Under the pieces are notes generated by a model. That model did not search any database. It saw nothing but the letters and a program-made list of their open reading frames with translations, and was not told the DNA's origin. This document shows, piece after piece, positions 4,994 through 64,000 of a DNA stretch of 64,000 bases. Source of the DNA: Escherichia phage vB_EcoM-BECP11; the sequence record MW286157.1, one strand, 5' to 3'. Position 1 is the first letter of the stretch. Each line of letters starts with the position of its first letter. Made by a program: the position numbers and the translations under genes.

Positions 4994-5007
4994 GGGCTTC
5001 GGCCCTT
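4992..5007 (+). promoter_or_regulatory. intercistronic RNA hairpin (UUCG tetraloop) after rIIB
   Basis: AAGGGC-TTCG-GCCCTT. Confidence 0.55.
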
Positions 5008-5021
5008 AACTAAGGAAAATT

Positions 5022-5216
5022 ATGTTAGGTTATCAAGCACGAGTAAAAGAAGAATACGATCAATTAATGCTCAAAATTAATGCACTGAGCAAATTTTTAG
5101 AAAGCACAAAGTTTCTAACAGTTAGTGCAGTTGAGCAAGAATTACTGCTTTCACAGTTCATCTCAATGAAATCTTATGCTGAATGTCTAGAGAAAAGAAT
5201 TGCACAATTCAAATAA
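5022..5216 (+). CDS. hypothetical protein (64 aa)
   Basis: ORF with RBS AAGGAAAAT, bracketed by two GGGCTTCGGCCC hairpins. Confidence 0.4.
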   Translation: MLGYQARVKEEYDQLMLKINALSKFLESTKFLTVSAVEQELLLSQFISMKSYAECLEKRIAQFK

Positions 5217-5218
5217 AT

Positions 5219-5240
5219 AAGGGCTTCGGCCCTTTTGTTT
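5219..5240 (+). terminator. hairpin with U-rich tail (terminator-like)
   Basis: AAGGGC-TTCG-GCCCTT followed by TTGTTTT; same hairpin sequence as 4992-5007. Confidence 0.5.
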
Positions 5241-5252
5241 TAAGGAAAAATT

Positions 5253-5582
5253 ATGATTTATTGTATGAATATCGGCGATTCCGACATAAAAGAGATTAAA
5301 CTGCACGGAAATCATCACGCTAATATTGTGTACTGTAATAAATTTGAGTTTGGTCACGAAAAACTTGGGTTTCTTTACTGTAATGATGTTATAGTCATGG
5401 ATAAAAAGGAGCTCGATGAACTTGACCTCGAGTCTTTAGATGAAAATGACCGAATTTATTATGGTACTCTTAAAGTATATAACGCTTATCTCGGTGGTAA
5501 AAAGGAAAGTCTAAATGCAGAAAACGAATCCGGGTTTACAGAGACTATTTCAGATTCCGACATTTACCCTATCGAACAGTGA
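5253..5582 (+). CDS. hypothetical protein (109 aa)
   Basis: ORF with RBS AAGGAAAAAT; 3' end overlaps the next ORF if that starts at 5515. Confidence 0.4.
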   Translation: MIYCMNIGDSDIKEIKLHGNHHANIVYCNKFEFGHEKLGFLYCNDVIVMDKKELDELDLESLDENDRIYYGTLKVYNAYLGGKKESLNAENESGFTETISDSDIYPIEQ

Positions 5583-6072
5583 TTTGACTAGTGAAATGAA
5601 GGTCAAAATTGCTGATACTGCGAGATACTCTTTAAAACAAAATCCAAACCAGGATAAGGCTGAGGTCATCGAAAGATGTCGTATCGCAGTGTATGCTGAG
5701 TATGTTGTAGCAGATTGGTTAAGTGGGTATGTTAACAAAGGTCAAGAAGACGTCGATGATCCGTATACATATGCATGGGATGTTTTAGCACATCCAAAAT
5801 ACTGCGGGCTTCGGGTAGAAGTTAAAACACACCAAACTGACTCTCGATGGATTTCAGTAACGACAGGACACAGCGGAGAGTATCCATACGGTTCTGGAAT
5901 AAATCTAGGGCCCATTCTAAATCATCAAGTCGCTGACTGTATAATTATATTCAACACTAAAGAAATTCATCCAGGTGTCATCCAGTACACTCCGAAGTTC
6001 ATCGGTGACAGAGAAGACCTTCGTAAGGTTGTAAGAAAAAGCAACTACAACGGATGGTATCTTTCCATTTAA
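5515..6072 (+). CDS. denB: putative endonuclease IV (DenB-like); start uncertain (alternative ATG at 5596)
   Basis: 185-aa ORF, the length I recall for T4 EndoIV, in the expected position between rIIB and ndd; assignment by length and synteny only. Confidence 0.4.
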   Translation: MQKTNPGLQRLFQIPTFTLSNSDLTSEMKVKIADTARYSLKQNPNQDKAEVIERCRIAVYAEYVVADWLSGYVNKGQEDVDDPYTYAWDVLAHPKYCGLRVEVKTHQTDSRWISVTTGHSGEYPYGSGINLGPILNHQVADCIIIFNTKEIHPGVIQYTPKFIGDREDLRKVVRKSNYNGWYLSI

Positions 6073-6091
6073 AAAATTTTTTCACAAAACG

Positions 6092-6121
6092 GTTTACATA
6101 CCACAAGGACCGTGGTACTAT
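6092..6121 (+). promoter_or_regulatory. T4-type early promoter
   Basis: GTTTAC 6092-6097, 18-bp spacer, TGGTACTAT extended -10; AT-rich UP-like tract upstream. Confidence 0.6.
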
Positions 6122-6152
6122 TACCCTATCAACTACGGAGGAGCGGAAAATG
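6111..6152 (+). repeat. promoter-leader repeat, copy 1
   Basis: CGTGGTACTATTACCCTATCAACTACGGAGGA...AAAATG, near-identical to 6617-6658; partial third copy at 27161-27180. Confidence 0.7.
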
Positions 6153-6413
6153 AAATTTAAATTTTATTACGCTAAACATAAAATAACTGATGAGTTTGTG
6201 TCAGTTGAATATTCTAGCGACGATGAAGGTATGATTTATACTCGCTTGGGACTATCGCATTGGGAGTCTGATCAGCCTTATTTTTCAACTCCTGAAGAAA
6301 TTACACGCTTAGTTAGTGGTCATATGAATGACCATTGGAATGTAATTCTTTCAGATAGTCTTAAAGCGGCTATTAATAGTAATGAAATGAAAATCGCTGA
6401 GATTGAGCTGTGA
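6150..6413 (+). CDS. hypothetical protein (87 aa)
   Basis: ATG 8 nt after GGAGGA, downstream of early promoter 6092-6121; the longer upstream ORF start reads through the promoter and is unlikely. Confidence 0.5.
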   Translation: MKFKFYYAKHKITDEFVSVEYSSDDEGMIYTRLGLSHWESDQPYFSTPEEITRLVSGHMNDHWNVILSDSLKAAINSNEMKIAEIEL

Positions 6414-6492
6414 GTTCACTATGGTGGTGTTTTGTTTGGTTAATTAGTATTCCAGTAATTTGTTTAACATTTACTTTTGTAATGAGGTTATT

Positions 6493-6591
6493 ATGAAAAT
6501 TTTGAATTCTGTACTTATTGCTTGCGCGTGGTGGGTTGCACAGGTTTCAGCGGTAGTAGTTGGTATTCACATTTATTACGAATATTTTTAA
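6493..6591 (+). CDS. predicted small hydrophobic peptide (32 aa)
   Basis: RBS GAGG then ATG; MKILNSVLIACAWWVAQVSAVVVGIHIYYEYF has one predicted TM helix. Confidence 0.35.
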   Translation: MKILNSVLIACAWWVAQVSAVVVGIHIYYEYF

Positions 6592-6597
6592 AAAGTT

Positions 6598-6627
6598 GTT
6601 TACAAGACTGTTCTTCCGTGGTACTAT
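6598..6627 (+). promoter_or_regulatory. T4-type early promoter (repeat copy)
   Basis: GTTTAC 6598-6603, 18-bp spacer, TGGTACTAT; the -10 and leader are identical to the copy at 6111-6152. Confidence 0.6.
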
Positions 6628-6658
6628 TACCCTATCAACTACGGAGGAACAGAAAATG
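6617..6658 (+). repeat. promoter-leader repeat, copy 2
   Basis: 32 of 32 nt identical to copy 1, then 2 mismatches up to the ATG. Confidence 0.7.
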
Positions 6659-6769
6659 AAAAAGATTGTTAAAGCTATATGGAATGTAGTTATAATACTA
6701 ATAGTTTTGAGTATATTCCCAATCGTTTTAATGATTGATGTATTAAACGCTTACTTTGGATTTATGTGA
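6656..6769 (+). CDS. predicted small membrane peptide (37 aa)
   Basis: GGAGGA RBS after early promoter 6598-6627; hydrophobic core VVIILIVLSIFPIVLMI. Confidence 0.45.
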   Translation: MKKIVKAIWNVVIILIVLSIFPIVLMIDVLNAYFGFM

Positions 6770-6776
6770 GGAAAAT

Positions 6777-6974
6777 ATGAAGCGTAAACGCAGTGCTTTT
6801 ACATTTATTGAATGGTTTTTCGATAATATTTTTCCGGCTTTATTCATTTTTATGCTGATTTTTGCCTTAGGTTCAGTTGTAGTTGGAATCTATTTGATGA
6901 CAGTAGTCGGAATTGATATTCATCAAAATGGTTTAAAATCTGTGGTTGAAACAATTTGGAATGGTGTAAAATGA
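6777..6974 (+). CDS. predicted small membrane protein (65 aa)
   Basis: RBS GAGGAAAATATG; hydrophobic stretch FPALFIFMLIFALGSVVVGIYLMTVVGI. Confidence 0.5.
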   Translation: MKRKRSAFTFIEWFFDNIFPALFIFMLIFALGSVVVGIYLMTVVGIDIHQNGLKSVVETIWNGVK

Positions 6975-7081
6975 TGAATTTGTTGAGCGGTTGGTTTTAT
7001 ATTCTTATGTTTTACATTGGTGCAAATTTTCCATATTGGATGGGATGGTCAACAACTGCATTCGGATTTTATACTCCTTGA
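6971..7081 (+). CDS. predicted small membrane peptide (36 aa)
   Basis: ATGA overlap with upstream stop; aromatic-rich hydrophobic sequence GWFYILMFYIGANFPYWMGW. Confidence 0.35.
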   Translation: MMNLLSGWFYILMFYIGANFPYWMGWSTTAFGFYTP

Positions 7082-7089
7082 GGTGAATT

Positions 7090-7305
7090 ATGAAAAGTTT
7101 TAAAGATGTAAAAGTTGGTGAAATTTTCTGTTTAGATAACGGTGATCAGTTAATTCGTATTTCACCTCTTAAGAGCACTAGCGAGAAACTGACAGTTAAT
7201 GCTACTTTAGCAAATAACAGTAATGAACGTTTCTGTATTGAAAATGATACTGAAACTTATACTGTAGAAGAGTTTTGGGAATTGAGCGTCGACTGCGACG
7301 ATTAA
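7090..7305 (+). CDS. hypothetical protein (71 aa)
   Basis: RBS GAGGTGAATT before ATG; followed by hairpin 7313-7332. Confidence 0.5.
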   Translation: MKSFKDVKVGEIFCLDNGDQLIRISPLKSTSEKLTVNATLANNSNERFCIENDTETYTVEEFWELSVDCDD

Positions 7306-7312
7306 TTTAATG

Positions 7313-7332
7313 GCCGCGTATTCATGCGGCCT
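7313..7332 (+). promoter_or_regulatory. intercistronic RNA hairpin upstream of ndd
   Basis: GGCCGC-gtattcat-GCGGCC. Confidence 0.5.
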
Positions 7333-7364
7333 TGGAGTAGAAAATAATTTTAGAGGAAATTAAT

Positions 7365-7823
7365 ATGAAATATATGACTGTTACTGATCTGAATAATGCG
7401 GGCGCTACTGTTATTGGTACAATCAAGGGTGGTGAGTGGTTTTTGGGAGTTCCACATAAAGACTTTTTATCTAAACCTGGATTTTACTTTTTAGTGAGTA
7501 AATTAGATGGTCGTCCATTTAGTAATCCATGTGTGTCTGCACGATTTTATGTAGGTAATCAGCGTTCTAAGCAAGGATTCAGCGCGGTTCTAAGTCATAT
7601 TCGTCAACGTCGGTCTCAGCTTGCACGTACTATTGCAAATAACAATGTTCCATACACAGTGTTTTATCTGCCTGCTTCTAAGATGAAACCTCTGACGACG
7701 GGATTTGGAAAAGGACAGTTAGCTTTAGCGTTTACTCGTAATCATCATTCTGAGTATCAAACACTTGAAGAAATGAACCGTATGTTGGCTGATAACTTTA
7801 AATTCGTTTTGCAGGCATATTAA
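7365..7823 (+). CDS. ndd: nucleoid disruption protein Ndd
   Basis: N-terminus [28 protein letters not shown] matches T4 Ndd as recalled; RBS GAGGAAATTAAT. Confidence 0.85.
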
Positions 7824-7903
7824 TGAGTAATTTCCATAACGAACATGTGATGCAGTTCTATCGTAATAATTTTAAAACTAAAGGCGTCTTCGGACGCCAG
7901 TGA
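7823..7903 (+). CDS. stp: Stp peptide (26 aa), activator of the host PrrC anticodon nuclease
   Basis: [26 protein letters not shown] matches the T4 Stp peptide as recalled; start overlaps ndd stop (TAATG). Confidence 0.8.
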
Positions 7904-7910
7904 GGAAAAT

Positions 7911-8063
7911 ATGAAATTTGTTTATGGTATAGCCTTTTTCTGCTGGTCCTTTTTATTCGCCGGAACAGTAATAACTGGAGAAACTTCAGTATTTTTACAA
8001 GCAACAGCTCAAGGCGTATTAGCAATTTTATCATTGTTTTGGCTATTAAATGAAAATGATTAA
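7911..8063 (+). CDS. ac: small membrane protein (50 aa), Ac-like (acridine sensitivity)
   Basis: position stp-ac-52 as in T4; hydrophobic 50-aa product; RBS GAGGAAAATATG. Confidence 0.55.
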   Translation: MKFVYGIAFFCWSFLFAGTVITGETSVFLQATAQGVLAILSLFWLLNEND

Positions 8064-9681: not shown

Positions 9682-9707
9682 GGGAGAGCCTCGGCTCTCC
9701 CTTTTTT
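9682..9707 (+). terminator. rho-independent terminator after gene 52 and the small ORF
   Basis: GGGAGAG-CCTCGG-CTCTCCC hairpin followed by TTTTTT. Confidence 0.7.
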
Positions 9708-9733
9708 ATTTCAAAAATTTTTTTCACAAAACG

Positions 9734-9763
9734 GTTTACAACCAAAGCATACTGTGGTACTAT
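9734..9763 (+). promoter_or_regulatory. T4-type early promoter for motA
   Basis: GTTTAC 9734-9739, 18-bp spacer, TGGTACTAT; follows terminator 9682-9707. Confidence 0.6.
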
Positions 9764-26426: not shown

Positions 26427-26456
26427 GTTTACATCCTTGTCCTTCCATGGTACTAT
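26427..26456 (+). promoter_or_regulatory. T4-type early promoter
   Basis: GTTTAC 26427-26432, 18-bp spacer, TGGTACTAT; follows the gene 32 terminator. Confidence 0.6.
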
Positions 26457-26775: not shown

Positions 26776-27141
26776 ATGTATATTGGCAAAAAGTATGAGC
26801 TTGTTCCAAGACTTATTGATACATTTATTAATTATCGCCCACGTTCTAATTCATCAATAGTTAAAATTATTCAAGAAAATGGTGGATGGTTTGAAGTTAA
26901 AGAAGCTTTCTTTGTTGATGGATTTAGAGTAATAAAACACATTGAATGCGCAAATGGAAAGCATTTTTACTTTAACGTTTGTGAAGACGAATTTCATTGT
27001 TTCCGCGAATATAAAGAACCTACTTCTGAAGAGGATGAAGTTAAAGACAAGGTTTCTGGCGTAACAAAAATTCACTGCATTGTTGACGAAAATAATGTAG
27101 ATGAAATCATTGAACTTTTGCGAAAAACTTTCAAAAAGTAG
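26776..27141 (+). CDS. hypothetical protein (121 aa)
   Basis: RBS GAGGAAAACGTA; preceded by hairpin 26738-26755. Confidence 0.5.
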   Translation: MYIGKKYELVPRLIDTFINYRPRSNSSIVKIIQENGGWFEVKEAFFVDGFRVIKHIECANGKHFYFNVCEDEFHCFREYKEPTSEEDEVKDKVSGVTKIHCIVDENNVDEIIELLRKTFKK

Positions 27142-27170
27142 TTTACAACAGGGTAGTAGTGTGATACTAT
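27141..27170 (+). promoter_or_regulatory. T4-type early promoter
   Basis: GTTTAC 27141-27146, 18-bp spacer, TGATACTAT; shares the TACTATTACCCTATCAA leader with the copies at 6111 and 6617. Confidence 0.55.
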
Positions 27171-27200
27171 TACCCTATCAAAACTAATGGAGAAAAGAAA

Positions 27201-27269
27201 ATGTTCGCACCTTATATTATGGCAGCAGTTATGTTGGTCTGTTTATATCTTTTGATTAAAGCTTGCTAA
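27201..27269 (+). CDS. possible micro-ORF, hydrophobic peptide (22 aa)
   Basis: ATG after GGAGAAAAGAAA, downstream of early promoter 27141-27170; MFAPYIMAAVMLVCLYLLIKAC. Confidence 0.25.
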   Translation: MFAPYIMAAVMLVCLYLLIKAC

Positions 27270-35649: not shown

Positions 35650-35679
35650 GTTTACAAGTCCCTCGTGTTGTGTTATAGT
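35650..35679 (+). promoter_or_regulatory. T4-type early promoter for alc
   Basis: GTTTAC 35650-35655, 18-bp spacer, TGTTATAGT. Confidence 0.55.
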
Positions 35680-35703
35680 AATCTTACTGACATAACATGA
35701 GGA
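35650..35703 (+). repeat. 54-bp promoter-leader repeat, copy A (upstream of alc)
   Basis: GTTTACAAGTCCCTCGTGTTGTGTTATAGTAATCTTACTGACATAACATGAGGA. Confidence 0.7.
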
Positions 35704-38971: not shown

Positions 38972-39001
38972 GTTTACTTTACGGTAGAGTTGTGATATTA
39001 T
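38972..39001 (+). promoter_or_regulatory. T4-type early promoter
   Basis: GTTTAC 38972-38977, 18-bp spacer, TGATATTAT. Confidence 0.5.
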
Positions 39002-39032
39002 AGCTCTACCAAAAACAAACGAGGAAATTGAA

Positions 39033-39560
39033 ATGAGCGAATGGTTTGAAGAAGATAAGGTTTATCGCTTTAAAACTGGGTATAAAGATATTTTTAATGA
39101 AACTTGCGGGGCTAATAAACGAATTGCCCAGTTTATTGGGGAAAATTCATTTAAAGTAAAAATAGATCCTGCGAAAAATGTTATTAGCATTAAACGCGAA
39201 ATTGATGACTGTTGGTATAAAGCTGTTGATGTAATGGGCGAATCCTATAAAGTTAGCCCGTTATTTTCAATTGCTTATATGTTAGAATATTCTTTTTTCG
39301 AAGAAGTTCAAAAAGATGATTCTGTCAGTAAATTTGAAATTAAAACTGATAAAGAAATTAAGTGGAAAGTAGTAGGTATTACTGGTTGTATGTTTTATAT
39401 CTATGCTCAAACTGATACGAAGGAAGAAGCTAAAAAGAAAGCTCTAGAATATCTTGAAGAGTATGAAGAAGGTCCAGTAATGATTACCCAAGATGCTGAA
39501 TTAGTTTCTGTCAAATTAGTTAAAAACGTTGAAAGTAAGGAGCTGGGATCAACATGCTAA
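39033..39560 (+). CDS. hypothetical protein (175 aa)
   Basis: RBS GAGGAAATTGAA, downstream of early promoter 38972-39001. Confidence 0.5.
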   Translation: MSEWFEEDKVYRFKTGYKDIFNETCGANKRIAQFIGENSFKVKIDPAKNVISIKREIDDCWYKAVDVMGESYKVSPLFSIAYMLEYSFFEEVQKDDSVSKFEIKTDKEIKWKVVGITGCMFYIYAQTDTKEEAKKKALEYLEEYEEGPVMITQDAELVSVKLVKNVESKELGSTC

Positions 39561-49412: not shown

Positions 49413-51470
49413 ATGGAACTTATTACAGAATTATTTGACGGCGCTTCGGCGCCGGTTGTTAACTTAAATCCTAAGCATAAAATACCTCAAATTTTTGCTA
49501 TTCAAGCAGGTGAAGAAAGCGTGCTTCCTGGATTTAGATTTTGTACATACACCTCTGGCGGTGATACGAATAAAAACGTTAAGCCAGGCGACAAAATGAT
49601 GCATATCGTAATGATAGGTGTTAATGAGAAACTATCATTAGTTAAGCTTAAAAACTTGGGTGGAAATCCAATTGGCGTCATTAATGCTGTTTTTGATACT
49701 GCTCTTCAAACAATGAAGCAGTATAAAATTGATGCATGCCTATTCCGCGTACTAAAAAGTAAAACAAATGGCGCAGCTCGTCAAATGCAAGTTATTGCTG
49801 ACCGTTTAGTACGTACTAAAGGAGCAGGTCGATATGTTCTTTTAAAGGAAATCTGGGATTATGATAAAAAGTACGCATATATTATGGTTTACCGTAAAAA
49901 TGCCAATTTAGAAGACATTCCAGGTGTACCTCCTATTTCAACCGAGTTATTCACAAAAGTTGAATCAAAGGTTGGTGATGTTTATGTAGACGTTAAAACA
50001 GGTAATGCTGTTCCTAAAGCTGTTGCTGTTGCTGCTTCTATTGCTTTAGAAAATGATAAGCGCACGGATCAAGCTGTTATTCAGAAAACTAAAATTAGTC
50101 GTCGATTAGCAGCACAAGCTCAATATTCTACTGTTGATGCTTCACTTCAGGGTGATAGCTTCGCTGCTAAGAAATATCAAGAGTTTGAATCTAAAGTTCC
50201 GGTATATAAAGCAGAAGGACCAATGAACTCTGGCGTTATTCAGGTTGGTTCAAACTTTAGCAAAGGAGCTATCGGTGGTATGAGAAGTGCTTCTCGTTTT
50301 AAATCTAGTGATTATGAACTCGAAAGCTTCCGAAATCATATTGCATTGGCCCATGCACGTTTACGCGATCCATCTATCAAGCTGCAGAGCGATATAACAT
50401 ATCAAGGTTCTCAAGAATATTTAAAGAATAAAGAATTCTTTGATTATAAAACTGATAAAATTTTAAGCGATCTTGCTGACATTAATATTTCTAATAGCTT
50501 TGATGTTATTAAGAAAATTGTCAATGATTTAGTTAAAGGTTCTAAAGCTACACCAGATGAAAAGACAGCTATTATTCAATTTGTAATGAACGGAATTTAT
50601 AAATTAATTGATGAATCTGCTGCTCAGGCATATGAATATGCAAGCACTGAAGTAACTCCAAAAGGATTAACTCAGGCTGAGTCTGATGTAATTGAAGATT
50701 ATTGCGCAGATTCATATGTTGAAATGAACTCGTTCCTTCTAGGTAAACCTGATTCTACCCGTGAAGAATATATGGAACGAGCTATTAAACATATTGAGAC
50801 GCTGGATTCTGCATTTTCTAAAGGTTCAGTTCTTCCTCCAGGAACTACTCTTTATCGTGGGCAAGAAGTTACCTTTAAAACTTTACGTCATAATATAGAA
50901 AATAAAATGTTCTATTTCAAGAACTTTGTATCTACTTCACTCAAGCCAAATATCTTCGGTGAATATGGTAAAAATTATATGGCCTTAGATGATTCCGGAG
51001 CAGTATTTTCTGGTGAAGGAGAAGGTTCAGTTGATGCTGAAGATTTAATGCATATGGGTAGTCATTCTACATATGCGAATGAAGACGCTGAAACTAATGT
51101 AGGTATGGTAATTAAAGGAGCTGAACGAGTTAAAGTTATCGTTCCAGGTCATTTATCAGGATTTCCATCCGAAGCTGAAGTTATTTTGCCGCGTGGAATT
51201 TTACTGAAGATTAATAAAGTAAGTACGTACATGATGAAAGAAACTGCTTATAACAAGTATCTAATCGAAGGTACAATCGTTCCTCCTTCTGAACAATTAG
51301 AAGAATCAGTATATGATGGCGACCATCTGATGGAAACTGGTGAAGTTCGTCCAATGGCTGGATTTAATCAATTCCTTGTAGAAGAATCAAAAGAAGAGGA
51401 AAACGAAGTTTCTCAAATCTTAGCTTCTTTGGTTAACATCAACGGAATGTCTAAAAAGTTCAAAATGTAG
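49413..51470 (+). CDS. second Alt-like ADP-ribosyltransferase, tandem paralogue (685 aa)
   Basis: MELITELFDGASAPVVNLNPKHKIPQIF...; retains YRGQ, FVSTSL and EAEVILPRG motifs; central region diverges from the first copy. Confidence 0.8.
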   Translation: MELITELFDGASAPVVNLNPKHKIPQIFAIQAGEESVLPGFRFCTYTSGGDTNKNVKPGDKMMHIVMIGVNEKLSLVKLKNLGGNPIGVINAVFDTALQTMKQYKIDACLFRVLKSKTNGAARQMQVIADRLVRTKGAGRYVLLKEIWDYDKKYAYIMVYRKNANLEDIPGVPPISTELFTKVESKVGDVYVDVKTGNAVPKAVAVAASIALENDKRTDQAVIQKTKISRRLAAQAQYSTVDASLQGDSFAAKKYQEFESKVPVYKAEGPMNSGVIQVGSNFSKGAIGGMRSASRFKSSDYELESFRNHIALAHARLRDPSIKLQSDITYQGSQEYLKNKEFFDYKTDKILSDLADINISNSFDVIKKIVNDLVKGSKATPDEKTAIIQFVMNGIYKLIDESAAQAYEYASTEVTPKGLTQAESDVIEDYCADSYVEMNSFLLGKPDSTREEYMERAIKHIETLDSAFSKGSVLPPGTTLYRGQEVTFKTLRHNIENKMFYFKNFVSTSLKPNIFGEYGKNYMALDDSGAVFSGEGEGSVDAEDLMHMGSHSTYANEDAETNVGMVIKGAERVKVIVPGHLSGFPSEAEVILPRGILLKINKVSTYMMKETAYNKYLIEGTIVPPSEQLEESVYDGDHLMETGEVRPMAGFNQFLVEESKEEENEVSQILASLVNINGMSKKFKM

Positions 51471-51499
51471 TTTACAAGTCCCTCGTATTGTGTTATAGT
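51470..51499 (+). promoter_or_regulatory. T4-type early promoter (repeat of the alc promoter-leader)
   Basis: GTTTAC 51470-51475, 18-bp spacer, TGTTATAGT; about 54 bp near-identical to 35650-35703. Confidence 0.55.
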
Positions 51500-51523
51500 A
51501 GTTTTACTGACATAACATGAGGA
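51470..51523 (+). repeat. 54-bp promoter-leader repeat, copy B (downstream of the alt pair)
   Basis: GTTTACAAGTCCCTCGTATTGTGTTATAGTAGTTTTACTGACATAACATGAGGA, about 4 mismatches to copy A. Confidence 0.7.
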
Positions 51524-62726: not shown

Positions 62727-64000
62727 ATGGCTTTTACAGTTGATATAACTCCTAAAACACCGACAGGGGTTATTGATGAAACCAAGCAGTTTACTGCTGC
62801 ACCCAGTGGTGAAACTGGAGGTGGAACTATTACTTATGCTTGGAGTGTAGATAATGCTCCACAAGATGGGTCTGAAGCAACTTTTGATTATGTATTAAAA
62901 GGTCCTGCTGGTCAAAAGACTATTAAAGTTGTTGCAACAAATACAGTTCCAGAATCTGAAGCTGAAACAGCAGAAGCTACTACAACTATCACAGTCAAAA
63001 ACAAAACTCAGACAACTACATTGGCAGTAACTCCCAATAGTCCCGCTGCTGGAGTAATCGGAACAGCTGTTAAATTTACTGCTGCCTTAGCTTCGCAGCC
63101 ATCAGGTGCATCTGCTACGTATCAATGGTACGTTGACGATTCTCCTGTAGACGAAGCGACTTCTGCTACATTTAATTACACTCCTGCCGCCAGCGGAGTT
63201 AAAAAAATCAAGTGTGTAGCTCAAGTAACCGCGACAAATTATGATGAAAAAACCGTTACTTCGAATGAAGTATCACTGACTGTTAATAAAAAGACACAGA
63301 CAACTACATTGGCAGTAACTCCTAATAGTCCTCCAGCAGGAGTAATTGGAACCCCAGTTCAATTTACTGCTACCTTAGCTTCTCAACCTGATGGAGCGTC
63401 TGCTACATATAAATGGTATGTAGATGATTCTCAAGTTGGTGGAGAAACTAACTCTACATTTAGCTATACTCCAACTACAAGTGGGGTAAAAAGAATTAAA
63501 TGCGTAGCCCAAGTAACAGCAGAAAATTACAATGAAAAGGAAGTTACTTCGAATGAAGTATCACTGACTGTTAATAAAAAGACAATGAATCCACAGGTTA
63601 CATTGACTCCTCCTTCTATTAACGTTCAGCAAGATGCTTCGGCTACATTTACTGCTAATGTCACTGATGCTCCAGAAGAAGCGCAAATTACTTATTCATG
63701 GAAGAAAGATTCTTCTCCTGTAGAAGGGTCAACTAACGTATATACTGTTGATACCTCATCTGTTGGAAGTCAAACTATTGAAGTTACTGCTGTCGTTACA
63801 GCAACTGACTATGATAGCAAAACAGTTAAAACAACAGGTCAAGTTCAGGTAACTGATAAAGTTGCTCCGGAACCAGAAGGTGAATTGCCTTATGTTCATC
63901 CTCTTCCACATCGTACTTCAGCTTATATCTGGTGCGGTTGGTGGGTTATGGATGAAATCCAAAAAATGACTGAAGAAGGTAAAGATTGGAAAACTGAAGA
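62727..64000 (+). CDS. hoc: Hoc outer capsid protein with tandem Ig-like domains; 3' end outside window
   Basis: MAFTVDITPKTPTG... followed by repeated ~95-aa Ig-like units (TLAVTPNSP.AGVIGT...WYVDDS...SLTVNKK); ORF open to window end. Confidence 0.8.
   Translation, partial: MAFTVDITPKTPTGVIDETKQFTAAPSGETGGGTITYAWSVDNAPQDGSEATFDYVLKGPAGQKTIKVVATNTVPESEAETAEATTTITVKNKTQTTTLAVTPNSPAAGVIGTAVKFTAALASQPSGASATYQWYVDDSPVDEATSATFNYTPAASGVKKIKCVAQVTATNYDEKTVTSNEVSLTVNKKTQTTTLAVTPNSPPAGVIGTPVQFTATLASQPDGASATYKWYVDDSQVGGETNSTFSYTPTTSGVKRIKCVAQVTAENYNEKEVTSNEVSLTVNKKTMNPQVTLTPPSINVQQDASATFTANVTDAPEEAQITYSWKKDSSPVEGSTNVYTVDTSSVGSQTIEVTAVVTATDYDSKTVKTTGQVQVTDKVAPEPEGELPYVHPLPHRTSAYIWCGWWVMDEIQKMTEEGKDWKTE
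63006..63581 (+). repeat. tandem direct repeat of about 288 bp inside hoc (duplicated Ig-like domain)
   Basis: unit boundaries share identical stretches AGACAACTACATTGGCAGTAACTCC and GTTACTTCGAATGAAGTATCACTGACTGTTAATAAAAAGACA; unit interiors are more diverged. Confidence 0.75.

Follow-up and report, generated by a model that had tools for sequence, protein, structure and literature searches.

Two T4-type early promoters in the denB–ndd region of a Tequatrovirus and the probable copying of a leader between them

How do two early promoters that head different genes come to share a leader almost letter for letter? The question is raised by the denB–ndd region of Escherichia phage vB_EcoM-BECP11 (record MW286157.1), of which we analysed a stretch of 64,000 nucleotides, here called the window. 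A first-pass annotation had described a 42-bp unit of -10 element, leader and start codon at 6111-6152 and again at 6617-6658, and this proved essentially right. Direct reading of the window gives 33 identical nucleotides, CCGTGGTACTATTACCCTATCAACTACGGAGGA, in the two copies (Table 1), and the likeness runs on to 6158 and 6664, that is over 49 nt with only two mismatches (GCGG vs ACAG), so that both start codons (ATG at 6150-6152 in copy 1 and at 6656-6658 in copy 2) lie inside. By our own estimate, chance would not yield an exact repeat of 33 nt in 64 kb. The repeat is real and has an ordinary explanation: it belongs to two T4-type early promoters with their leaders, which we call P1 and P2. 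We propose, with a probability of about 0.8, that P1 took some 30 bases of the P2 leader by short-patch recombination.

Promoters and genes of the denB–ndd region

A megablast search with 5000-8000 returned 556 phage records, nearly all of them Tequatrovirus (T4-like), the best match being Escherichia phage Ec_O157kw at 98%. The window is thus a Tequatrovirus genome, and its + strand has the direction of early transcription in T4. The genes follow one another in the order rIIB, denB.1, an ORF of 109 aa, denB, an ORF of 87 aa (ORF87), ndd.6, ndd.5 and ndd.4, followed by ndd.2a, ndd.2, ndd.1, ndd (7365-7823), stp, ac and gene 52.

Table 1. Promoter modules, repeat copies and neighbouring genes in the window
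Feature	Coordinates	Strand	Remarks
denB	5515-6072	+	stop codon 6070-6072
P1 A/T-rich upstream (UP-like) region, TTTAAAAAATTTTTTCACAAAACG type	6062-6091	+	overlaps denB stop
P1 core early promoter	6092-6121	+	-35 GTTTAC(A) 6092-6098, 17-nt spacer, TGn 6113-6115, -10 TACTAT 6116-6121
Repeat copy 1	6110-6142	+	end of spacer, -10, discriminator TACCCT, ATCAACTAC, SD GGAGGA
ORF87	6150-6413	+	87 aa; PST ORF268; PHROG 2390, function unknown
ndd.6 homologue	6410-6496	+	28 aa; PHROG 8851; T4 annotation
ndd.5 homologue	6493-6591	+	32 aa; PHROG 5011; T4 annotation
P2 core early promoter	6598-6627	+	-35 GTTTAC 6598-6603, -10 TACTAT 6622-6627
Repeat copy 2, probable donor of the shared tract	6616-6648	+	identity to copy 1; comparative table of genomes
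ndd.4 homologue	6656-6769	+	37 aa, membrane peptide; PHROG 3098
Third, partial copy, early promoter	27141-27170	+	same -10 and discriminator type as P1/P2
22-codon ORF	27201-27269	+	headed by third copy; no PHROG match

A different small ORF does stand behind each copy, as had been noted, but those behind P1 and P2 are not novel: all are members of described families without an assigned function (PHROGs 2390, 8851, 5011 and 3098). ORF87 occurs in three allelic types with conserved ends and is missing from T4, RB32 and T2. Its stop codon overlaps the GTG start of ndd.6, which in turn overlaps ndd.5 by ATGA. A Pfam search with ORF87, ORF68 (see below) and ndd.4 gave no match, and a literature search on ndd.4, ndd.5 and ndd.6 found nothing useful. 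The annotation "type IC restriction inhibitor", considered for one of the small ORFs, was rejected; it denotes Stp, downstream of ndd. The ORF of 109 aa (5253-5582) between denB.1 and denB, which overlaps denB if the long reading of its start is taken, is missing from T4, relative to which it forms a 195-nt insertion, and is present in T6, RB32-like and O157 phages.

T4 early promoters form a 'UP/-35/TGn/-10' class served by the host sigma-70 RNA polymerase (PMC2988021). A strict scan of the window for GTTTAC-N16-18-TAnnnT found 13 matches, all on the + strand, the strand of early, counter-clockwise transcription, and the family can be described as GTTTAC-N17-TAnnnT, strand-specific and with 13 members in the window. 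Twelve of the 13 could be placed at T4 sites with the same motif; the remaining one, at 1597, lies outside the T4 segment compared. P1, downstream of denB, is orthologous to the T4 site with -35 start 167086, P2, upstream of ndd.4, to that with -35 start 166807, and the third copy to that with -35 start 146143, between frd.2 and frd.1. All three show the A/T-rich upstream region (in P2 GAATATTTTTAAAAAGTT), TTTACA, a 17-nt spacer, TGn and TACTAT, with TGG as the TGn of P1 and P2. The two promoters thus resemble the T4 early promoters in GTTTAC(A), 17-nt spacer, TGn, TAnnAT and A/T-rich upstream region, in their restriction to the early strand and in their position; P1 of the window departs from its T4 counterpart only downstream of the -10, where the leader is swapped, and in the gene that it heads, and is of the same kind. 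The P1 spacer, ATACCACAAGGAC(C/T)GTGG, is invariant in 24 genomes, and P1 is annotated as 'promoter' in phage Lutter. The spacers of P1 (6099-6115) and of the 1597 promoter (1603-1620) share ACCACAAGGA...GTGG, which holds a small inverted repeat (CCAC...GTGG). An Rfam search over 5800-7000 found no family at E values up to 1.

Consensus and orthology with T4 sites suggest that P1 and P2 are active, with transcription probably starting near A6128 and A6634; in each case the leader has 22 nt with a GGAGG SD and is followed by the ATG. P1 (6062-6149) and P2 (about 6570-6655) would then be sigma-70-dependent early promoters of T4 type with GGAG-containing SDs, which in the dispensable denB–ndd region would serve immediate-early transcription, P1 driving ORF87, ndd.6 and ndd.5 and P2 driving ndd.4 and what follows. 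Since no terminator lies between the two, transcription from P1 is expected to continue into the genes behind P2. The earlier view of this stretch as early promoter, leader and start-codon modules in a variable region is well supported.

The partial third copy at 27161-27180 (GTGATACTATTACCCTATCA) is also there, with 19 of 20 positions matching. The extended -10 and the sequence to about +8 (TGnTAnTAT, TACCCT/ACAACT, ATCAA) are a family consensus, common to other early promoters of the window and to distant relatives, and for this reason the third copy is a family resemblance and not a copy of the P1/P2 pair; downstream of the -10 it matches P2 at only 18 of 33 nt. What is specific to P1 and P2 is only the tract that continues to the SD. 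A 16-mer of the leader, searched with up to two mismatches, is found at the P1 and P2 sites only, where 0.02 chance matches are expected. The 22-codon ORF behind the third copy encodes a hydrophobic peptide, MFAPYIMAAVMLVCLYLLIKAC, has a good SD and is kept in T4 between frd.2 and frd.1, with the same start region, where it is unannotated.

A chimeric P1 and a mosaic of leaders

Each of the 78 promoter pairs was compared separately for its upstream, spacer and downstream segments. P1 and P2 agree at 14 of 30 upstream positions and at 8 of 18 spacer positions, near the family means of 12.0 and 7.1. Downstream of the -10 they agree at 31 of 33 positions, which is the top value of the 78 pairs and lies 4.7 sd above the mean of 12.3 (sd 4.0). 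The upstream region of P1 is closest to that of the motA promoter (9704-9733; promoter at 9734), with 25 of 30 positions identical. As judged from these alignments, P1 is a chimera of a motA-like upstream region, a locus-specific spacer and a P2-like tract from -10 to SD. The GCGG before its ATG is found neither at P2, which has ACAG, nor in the other states of P1, which have GAGT/GTAA, and needs at least two further substitutions or another donor. An assembly artefact was considered and rejected, the chimeric P1 being identical in independent isolates (AR1, Ec_O157kw).

The denB–ndd.4 interval was then inspected in 24 genomes, of which 21 were tabulated and three came from a metagenome scan; the latter agree with the P1/P2 pattern of the former. 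P2 hardly varies: in 18 of the 21 the -10 and the sequence behind it read TACTAT-TACCCTATCAACTACGGAGGAACAGAAAATG, exactly or with very small changes, and the gene that follows is ndd.4 throughout. At P1 all genomes have the spacer peculiar to this promoter, and the variation lies downstream of the -10. Eleven of the 21, including T4, PST, UFV09, RB32, T2, T6 and PYPS2T, carry at P1 what we call leader A, ACAACTATCAACT(ACT)GATACGGATTTGGAGAATAAAATG, or in full ACAACT ATCAACT(ACT)GATACGGATTTGGAGA(A/G)TAAAATG. P2-like tracts of varying extent stand at P1 in CrRp10, O157tp7, phiD1, e11/2, NIC06P2, Lutter, CM8, UViG_2932 and the window with Ec_O157kw. They comprise only the core ATCAACTACGGAGGA in CrRp10, O157tp7 and phiD1, an ATCAGCT variant of the core in Lutter, CM8 and others, the core and its continuation as far as the ATG in e11/2, the core with the TACCCT discriminator in the window and Ec_O157kw, and all of these together (core, TACCCT and tract to the ATG) in NIC06P2. 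The window state is rare, with eight records matching the 69-nt module at 99% or more, and a P2-like tract is found in a minority of genomes.

Two features of this mosaic bear directly on its origin. CrRp10 differs from leader A by exactly two 3-nt changes, both of which give the P2 sequence, and one patch would be more parsimonious here than two independent indels. The discriminator (TACCCT or ACAACT, four differences) and the allele of SD spacer and ORF87 occur in all four combinations (window, O157tp7, NIC06P2, e11/2). The two sites are only about 20 nt apart, and such a pattern requires recombination within the module. General concerted evolution, which Lutter with ACAACT at both P1 and P2 might suggest, was rejected, as CM8, L033 and L036 have the same P1 with a TACCCT P2. 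A module resembling P1 (64 of 69 nt, 81-83% identity) is found beside cef in many Klebsiella T4-like phages, so that the same type of promoter and leader heads other genes in another genus.

Could the likeness have arisen without any exchange? Selection for strong early promoters and for ribosome binding might have made the leaders alike: the consensus does pass the -10, with T at +6 in 11 of 13 promoters, an ATCAA-like start in most and SDs of the GGAG type, and the same discriminator and type of start recur in relatives whose DenB is 45-62% identical. We nevertheless regard this as extremely unlikely, given the excess of P1–P2 identity over the family mean and the different leader that the orthologous P1 carries in 11 of 21 genomes; the four-combination pattern, which cannot come from recurrent mutation, already contradicts it. 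The chances are slimmer still, in our judgement close to nil, for a tandem duplication of a whole promoter–gene cassette that left ORF87 and ndd.4 as diverged paralogues and the repeat as the best-preserved remnant. It is true that both proteins begin MK(F/K)K and that the genome holds other duplications, such as the two probable alt paralogues described below. Against this, ORF87 and ndd.4 have no detectable similarity, and their being unrelated rules out such a duplication; moreover, between P1 and P2 the upstream regions and spacers resemble each other no more than in random promoter pairs, and the shared tract is missing from P1 in most genomes.

An exchange between the two copies is therefore supported, in the form of a conversion: tracts of varied length that resemble P2 stand at P1. 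We suggest, as the most parsimonious account, that P1 received from the stable P2, which lies 506 bp further downstream, a tract of 21-33 nt that reaches from the -10 region as far as the SD. The tract would have replaced the ancestral leader A, and the likely route was non-reciprocal homologous recombination (short-patch conversion). The direction from P2 to P1 is suggested by the conservation of P2 and not by a rooted phylogeny. After the copying of a patch, ordinary allelic recombination may have spread pieces of it; alternatively, conversion may not have recurred at all, and the mosaic could go back to one ectopic event whose product was then reshuffled by ordinary allelic recombination between phages infecting the same cell. 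We consider it very unlikely that the process is targeted and integron-like, with the tract from -10 to SD (...TACTAT-NNNNCT-ATCAACTAC-GGAG...) as a dedicated site. If it were, leaders together with their downstream cassettes would be swapped among dispersed early promoters, and accessory genes would thereby be re-tuned in their ribosome binding and in their sensitivity to RegB.

The gene slot behind P1 and the idea of promoter cassettes

Gene-content differences among the relatives begin at the 3' edge of the P1 module (24 genomes). The slot behind the P1 leader is hyperplastic, with at least eight states in the 24 genomes. It holds ORF68 and ORF87 in PST (where they are ORF269 and ORF268) and UFV09, ORF87 alone in the window and most others, ORF68 alone in RB32 and T2, and neither in T4. 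In T4 the ATG of ORF68 is fused at AAATG to the last eight codons of ORF87, with loss of both genes. In the loss of ORF87, the junctions of RB32 and T2 are 5 nt away from each other, and in the loss of ORF68 L003-type genomes have one junction and L006 another; as the junctions differ, the losses are independent events. The junctions lie in repeats of 2-8 nt, namely AAATG, AATGAAAT, AAATGAAA, TAAAATG and GA. In T4, microhomology-mediated deletions at short repeats are familiar from the rII deletion literature. The losses of ORF68 and ORF87 resemble these in their short repeats and differ in that the microhomologies are A-rich translation-initiation contexts. Deletions of genes are consequently clean, extending between two start codons or between a start codon and an internal ATG that lies eight codons before the stop. 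The slot directly behind the P1 leader is an indel hotspot, with genes gained or lost through A-rich SD/ATG microhomologies.

All three deletions of ORF87 keep its eight-codon tail, whose stop overlaps the start of ndd.6. This suggests selection for translational coupling, and it could equally reflect a hotspot of microhomology. In T4 the remnant is an unannotated mini-ORF of eight codons, MKIAEIEL, at 167019-166996, with its stop overlapping the ndd.6 start. Among more distant phages, relatives with a DenB of about 62% identity have a homologue of ORF68 (63% identity) behind the equivalent promoter, and a promoter-headed homologue of ndd.4 (58%) is found in the distant relative L010, with DenB 45% identical. 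Leader A with ORF68, and P2 with ndd.4, are accordingly old associations, and leader A with ORF68 is likely to be the ancestral state.

These observations have to be seen against the promoter-early-stem-loop (PeSL) elements, which consist of an A/T-rich region, an early promoter, SD and ATG with a stem-loop terminator just upstream, and which have been proposed to recombine and shuffle ORFs (PMC2839356, PMC4122927). They were described in RB49/phi1 (PMC2839356) and in PST/T4 and nt-1/KVP40, with the consensus TTTACW-N17-TAYWAT for PST/T4 (PMC4122927). The match suggested by the earlier reading of this locus stands in part. P1 and P2 do have the A/T-rich region, early promoter, SD and ATG, they lie in a hyperplastic region beside variable small ORFs, and the locus is itself a published example: Fig. 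6A of PMC4122927 uses denB–ndd to illustrate an 'exchange of ndd.4/.5 in T4 for ORF268/269 in PST'. The tract exchanged between P1 and P2 also falls between -10 and SD/ATG, the zone to which the minicircle crossovers of RB49 were mapped (PMC2839356). The stem-loop, by contrast, is missing at P1, P2 and 27141, where upstream hairpins are no better than in shuffled sequence (z +0.41, -0.71 and +1.05) and no terminator-like site is found. A GC-rich hairpin with a T-run does lie upstream of the promoters at 9734 (z -4.7), 42512 (z -2.7) and 26427.

The PeSL account would have a crossover between the direct repeats excise ORF87-ndd.6-ndd.5 as a minicircle, or delete, duplicate or swap these genes, and so shape the locus. 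The 33-nt identity is within the range usable in T4, where recombination can use identities under 50 bp (cited in PMC2839356); the agreement with the RB49 crossover tract and the published Fig. 6A speak for the same idea. Nonetheless, no natural crossover between the copies was seen. The distance from P1 to P2 is 279, 488-493, 504-516 or 725 nt and never collapsed in the genomes examined. As a BLAST search with synthetic P1xP2 deletion and duplication junctions gave 100% coverage also for undeleted genomes, the pieces being joined, it was replaced by a sample of spans and by pattern scans. Among 60 records spaced evenly through 498, the span was about 800, 1016, 780 or 570 nt, and none of the 60 had the span of about 295 nt expected of a P1xP2 deletion. 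A gapped-pattern scan of viral and metagenome collections gave nine hits, all of P1 leading into ORF87 and none of P1 leading into ndd.4. The suggestion that the repeats mediate deletion or duplication thus found no variant at the repeat boundaries in the 24 genomes, the 60 sampled records or the nine hits. Nor do the observed indel junctions correspond to P1xP2 crossovers: each of those sequenced lies within the P1 slot at a microhomology of SD/ATG type, and P2 was never a breakpoint in the genomes examined. The published exchange itself has a simpler reading. Since ndd.6 and ndd.5 are intact in PST, the difference between T4 and PST is a microhomology deletion on the T4 side and not an exchange of ndd.4/.5 for ORF268/269. 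In PST (a Yersinia phage, L016) the two genes lie at 1671-1912 and are unannotated.

The wider window gives the PeSL crossover slight further weight. Counting indels and replacements of at least 40 bp against T4, we found 15 events, among them five T4 homing-endonuclease or intron insertions and one replacement at the tail-fibre genes 37/38. In three of the 15, a breakpoint falls inside an early-promoter module (6139, 39035 and 51451). That three of 30 breakpoints lie in promoter modules, where 2.5% are expected, is a modest enrichment (P about 0.04 under a uniform null), which would weaken under a null of intergenic sites only. With these points on both sides, and with the missing stem-loops, we hold a PeSL-type crossover as the force shaping the locus to be unlikely.

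Other modules of the window and the link to RegB

Several other early-promoter modules differ from T4 or are repeated. At 38972-39560, an extra ORF of 173 aa (about 39033-39554, MSEWFEEDKVYRF...) stands between a leader of the T4 Pe133.3 type and cd.3; it is missing from T4, both junctions are at start codons, and the arrangement mirrors the slot after P1. The promoter at 26427-26456, after the gene 32 terminator (T4 -35 start 146875, heading frd.3), has the spacer ATCCTTGTCCTTCCATGG in place of T4 AAGCATAAAGCTTTATGG; its -35, its -10 and both flanks are conserved, so that the replacement is internal to the promoter. A second and longer duplicate of promoter and leader, 54 nt with 94% identity including the spacer, is found at 35650-35703 and 51470-51523. 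These modules correspond to the T4 sites with -35 starts 136336 (upstream of alc) and 123093 (upstream of alt.-3), and the T4 pair is identical at 53 of 54 positions. Between 47315 and 51450, repeats at a spacing of about 2094 nt suggest two full-length tandem paralogues of alt (ADP-ribosyltransferase), where T4 has one alt besides the remnants alt.-1 and alt.-2. The T4-side deletion here ends on its right directly beside the upstream region of the promoter at 51470. Near the window end, 62991-63566 is a tandem direct repeat of 288 nt in two copies with 76% identity.

A functional side of the leader swap is suggested by RegB, an endoribonuclease whose strong sites in early-gene SDs follow the consensus GG*AGRAYARAA (PMC3014915). 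The SD of every leader treated here contains GGAG. Agreement with the consensus is complete in leader A (GGAGAATAAAA; 11 of 11 positions), and the P1 and P2 leaders of the window reach only 8-9 of 11. With the leader swapped, the mRNA may therefore differ in RegB sensitivity, in its inactivation and in ribosome binding.

In summary, the promoters, the plasticity of the region and the idea of cassette shuffling are all already published for the denB–ndd locus, and the significance of our findings outside the T4 field is small. What they offer is a refinement. Short-patch conversion of leaders together with microhomology deletions at start codons is favoured over cassette crossovers, and the published T4/PST 'exchange' becomes a simple T4 deletion. 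The leader swap, in turn, shifts the match to the RegB cleavage consensus, and such a change might give the phage a cheap way to alter the expression of its accessory genes.
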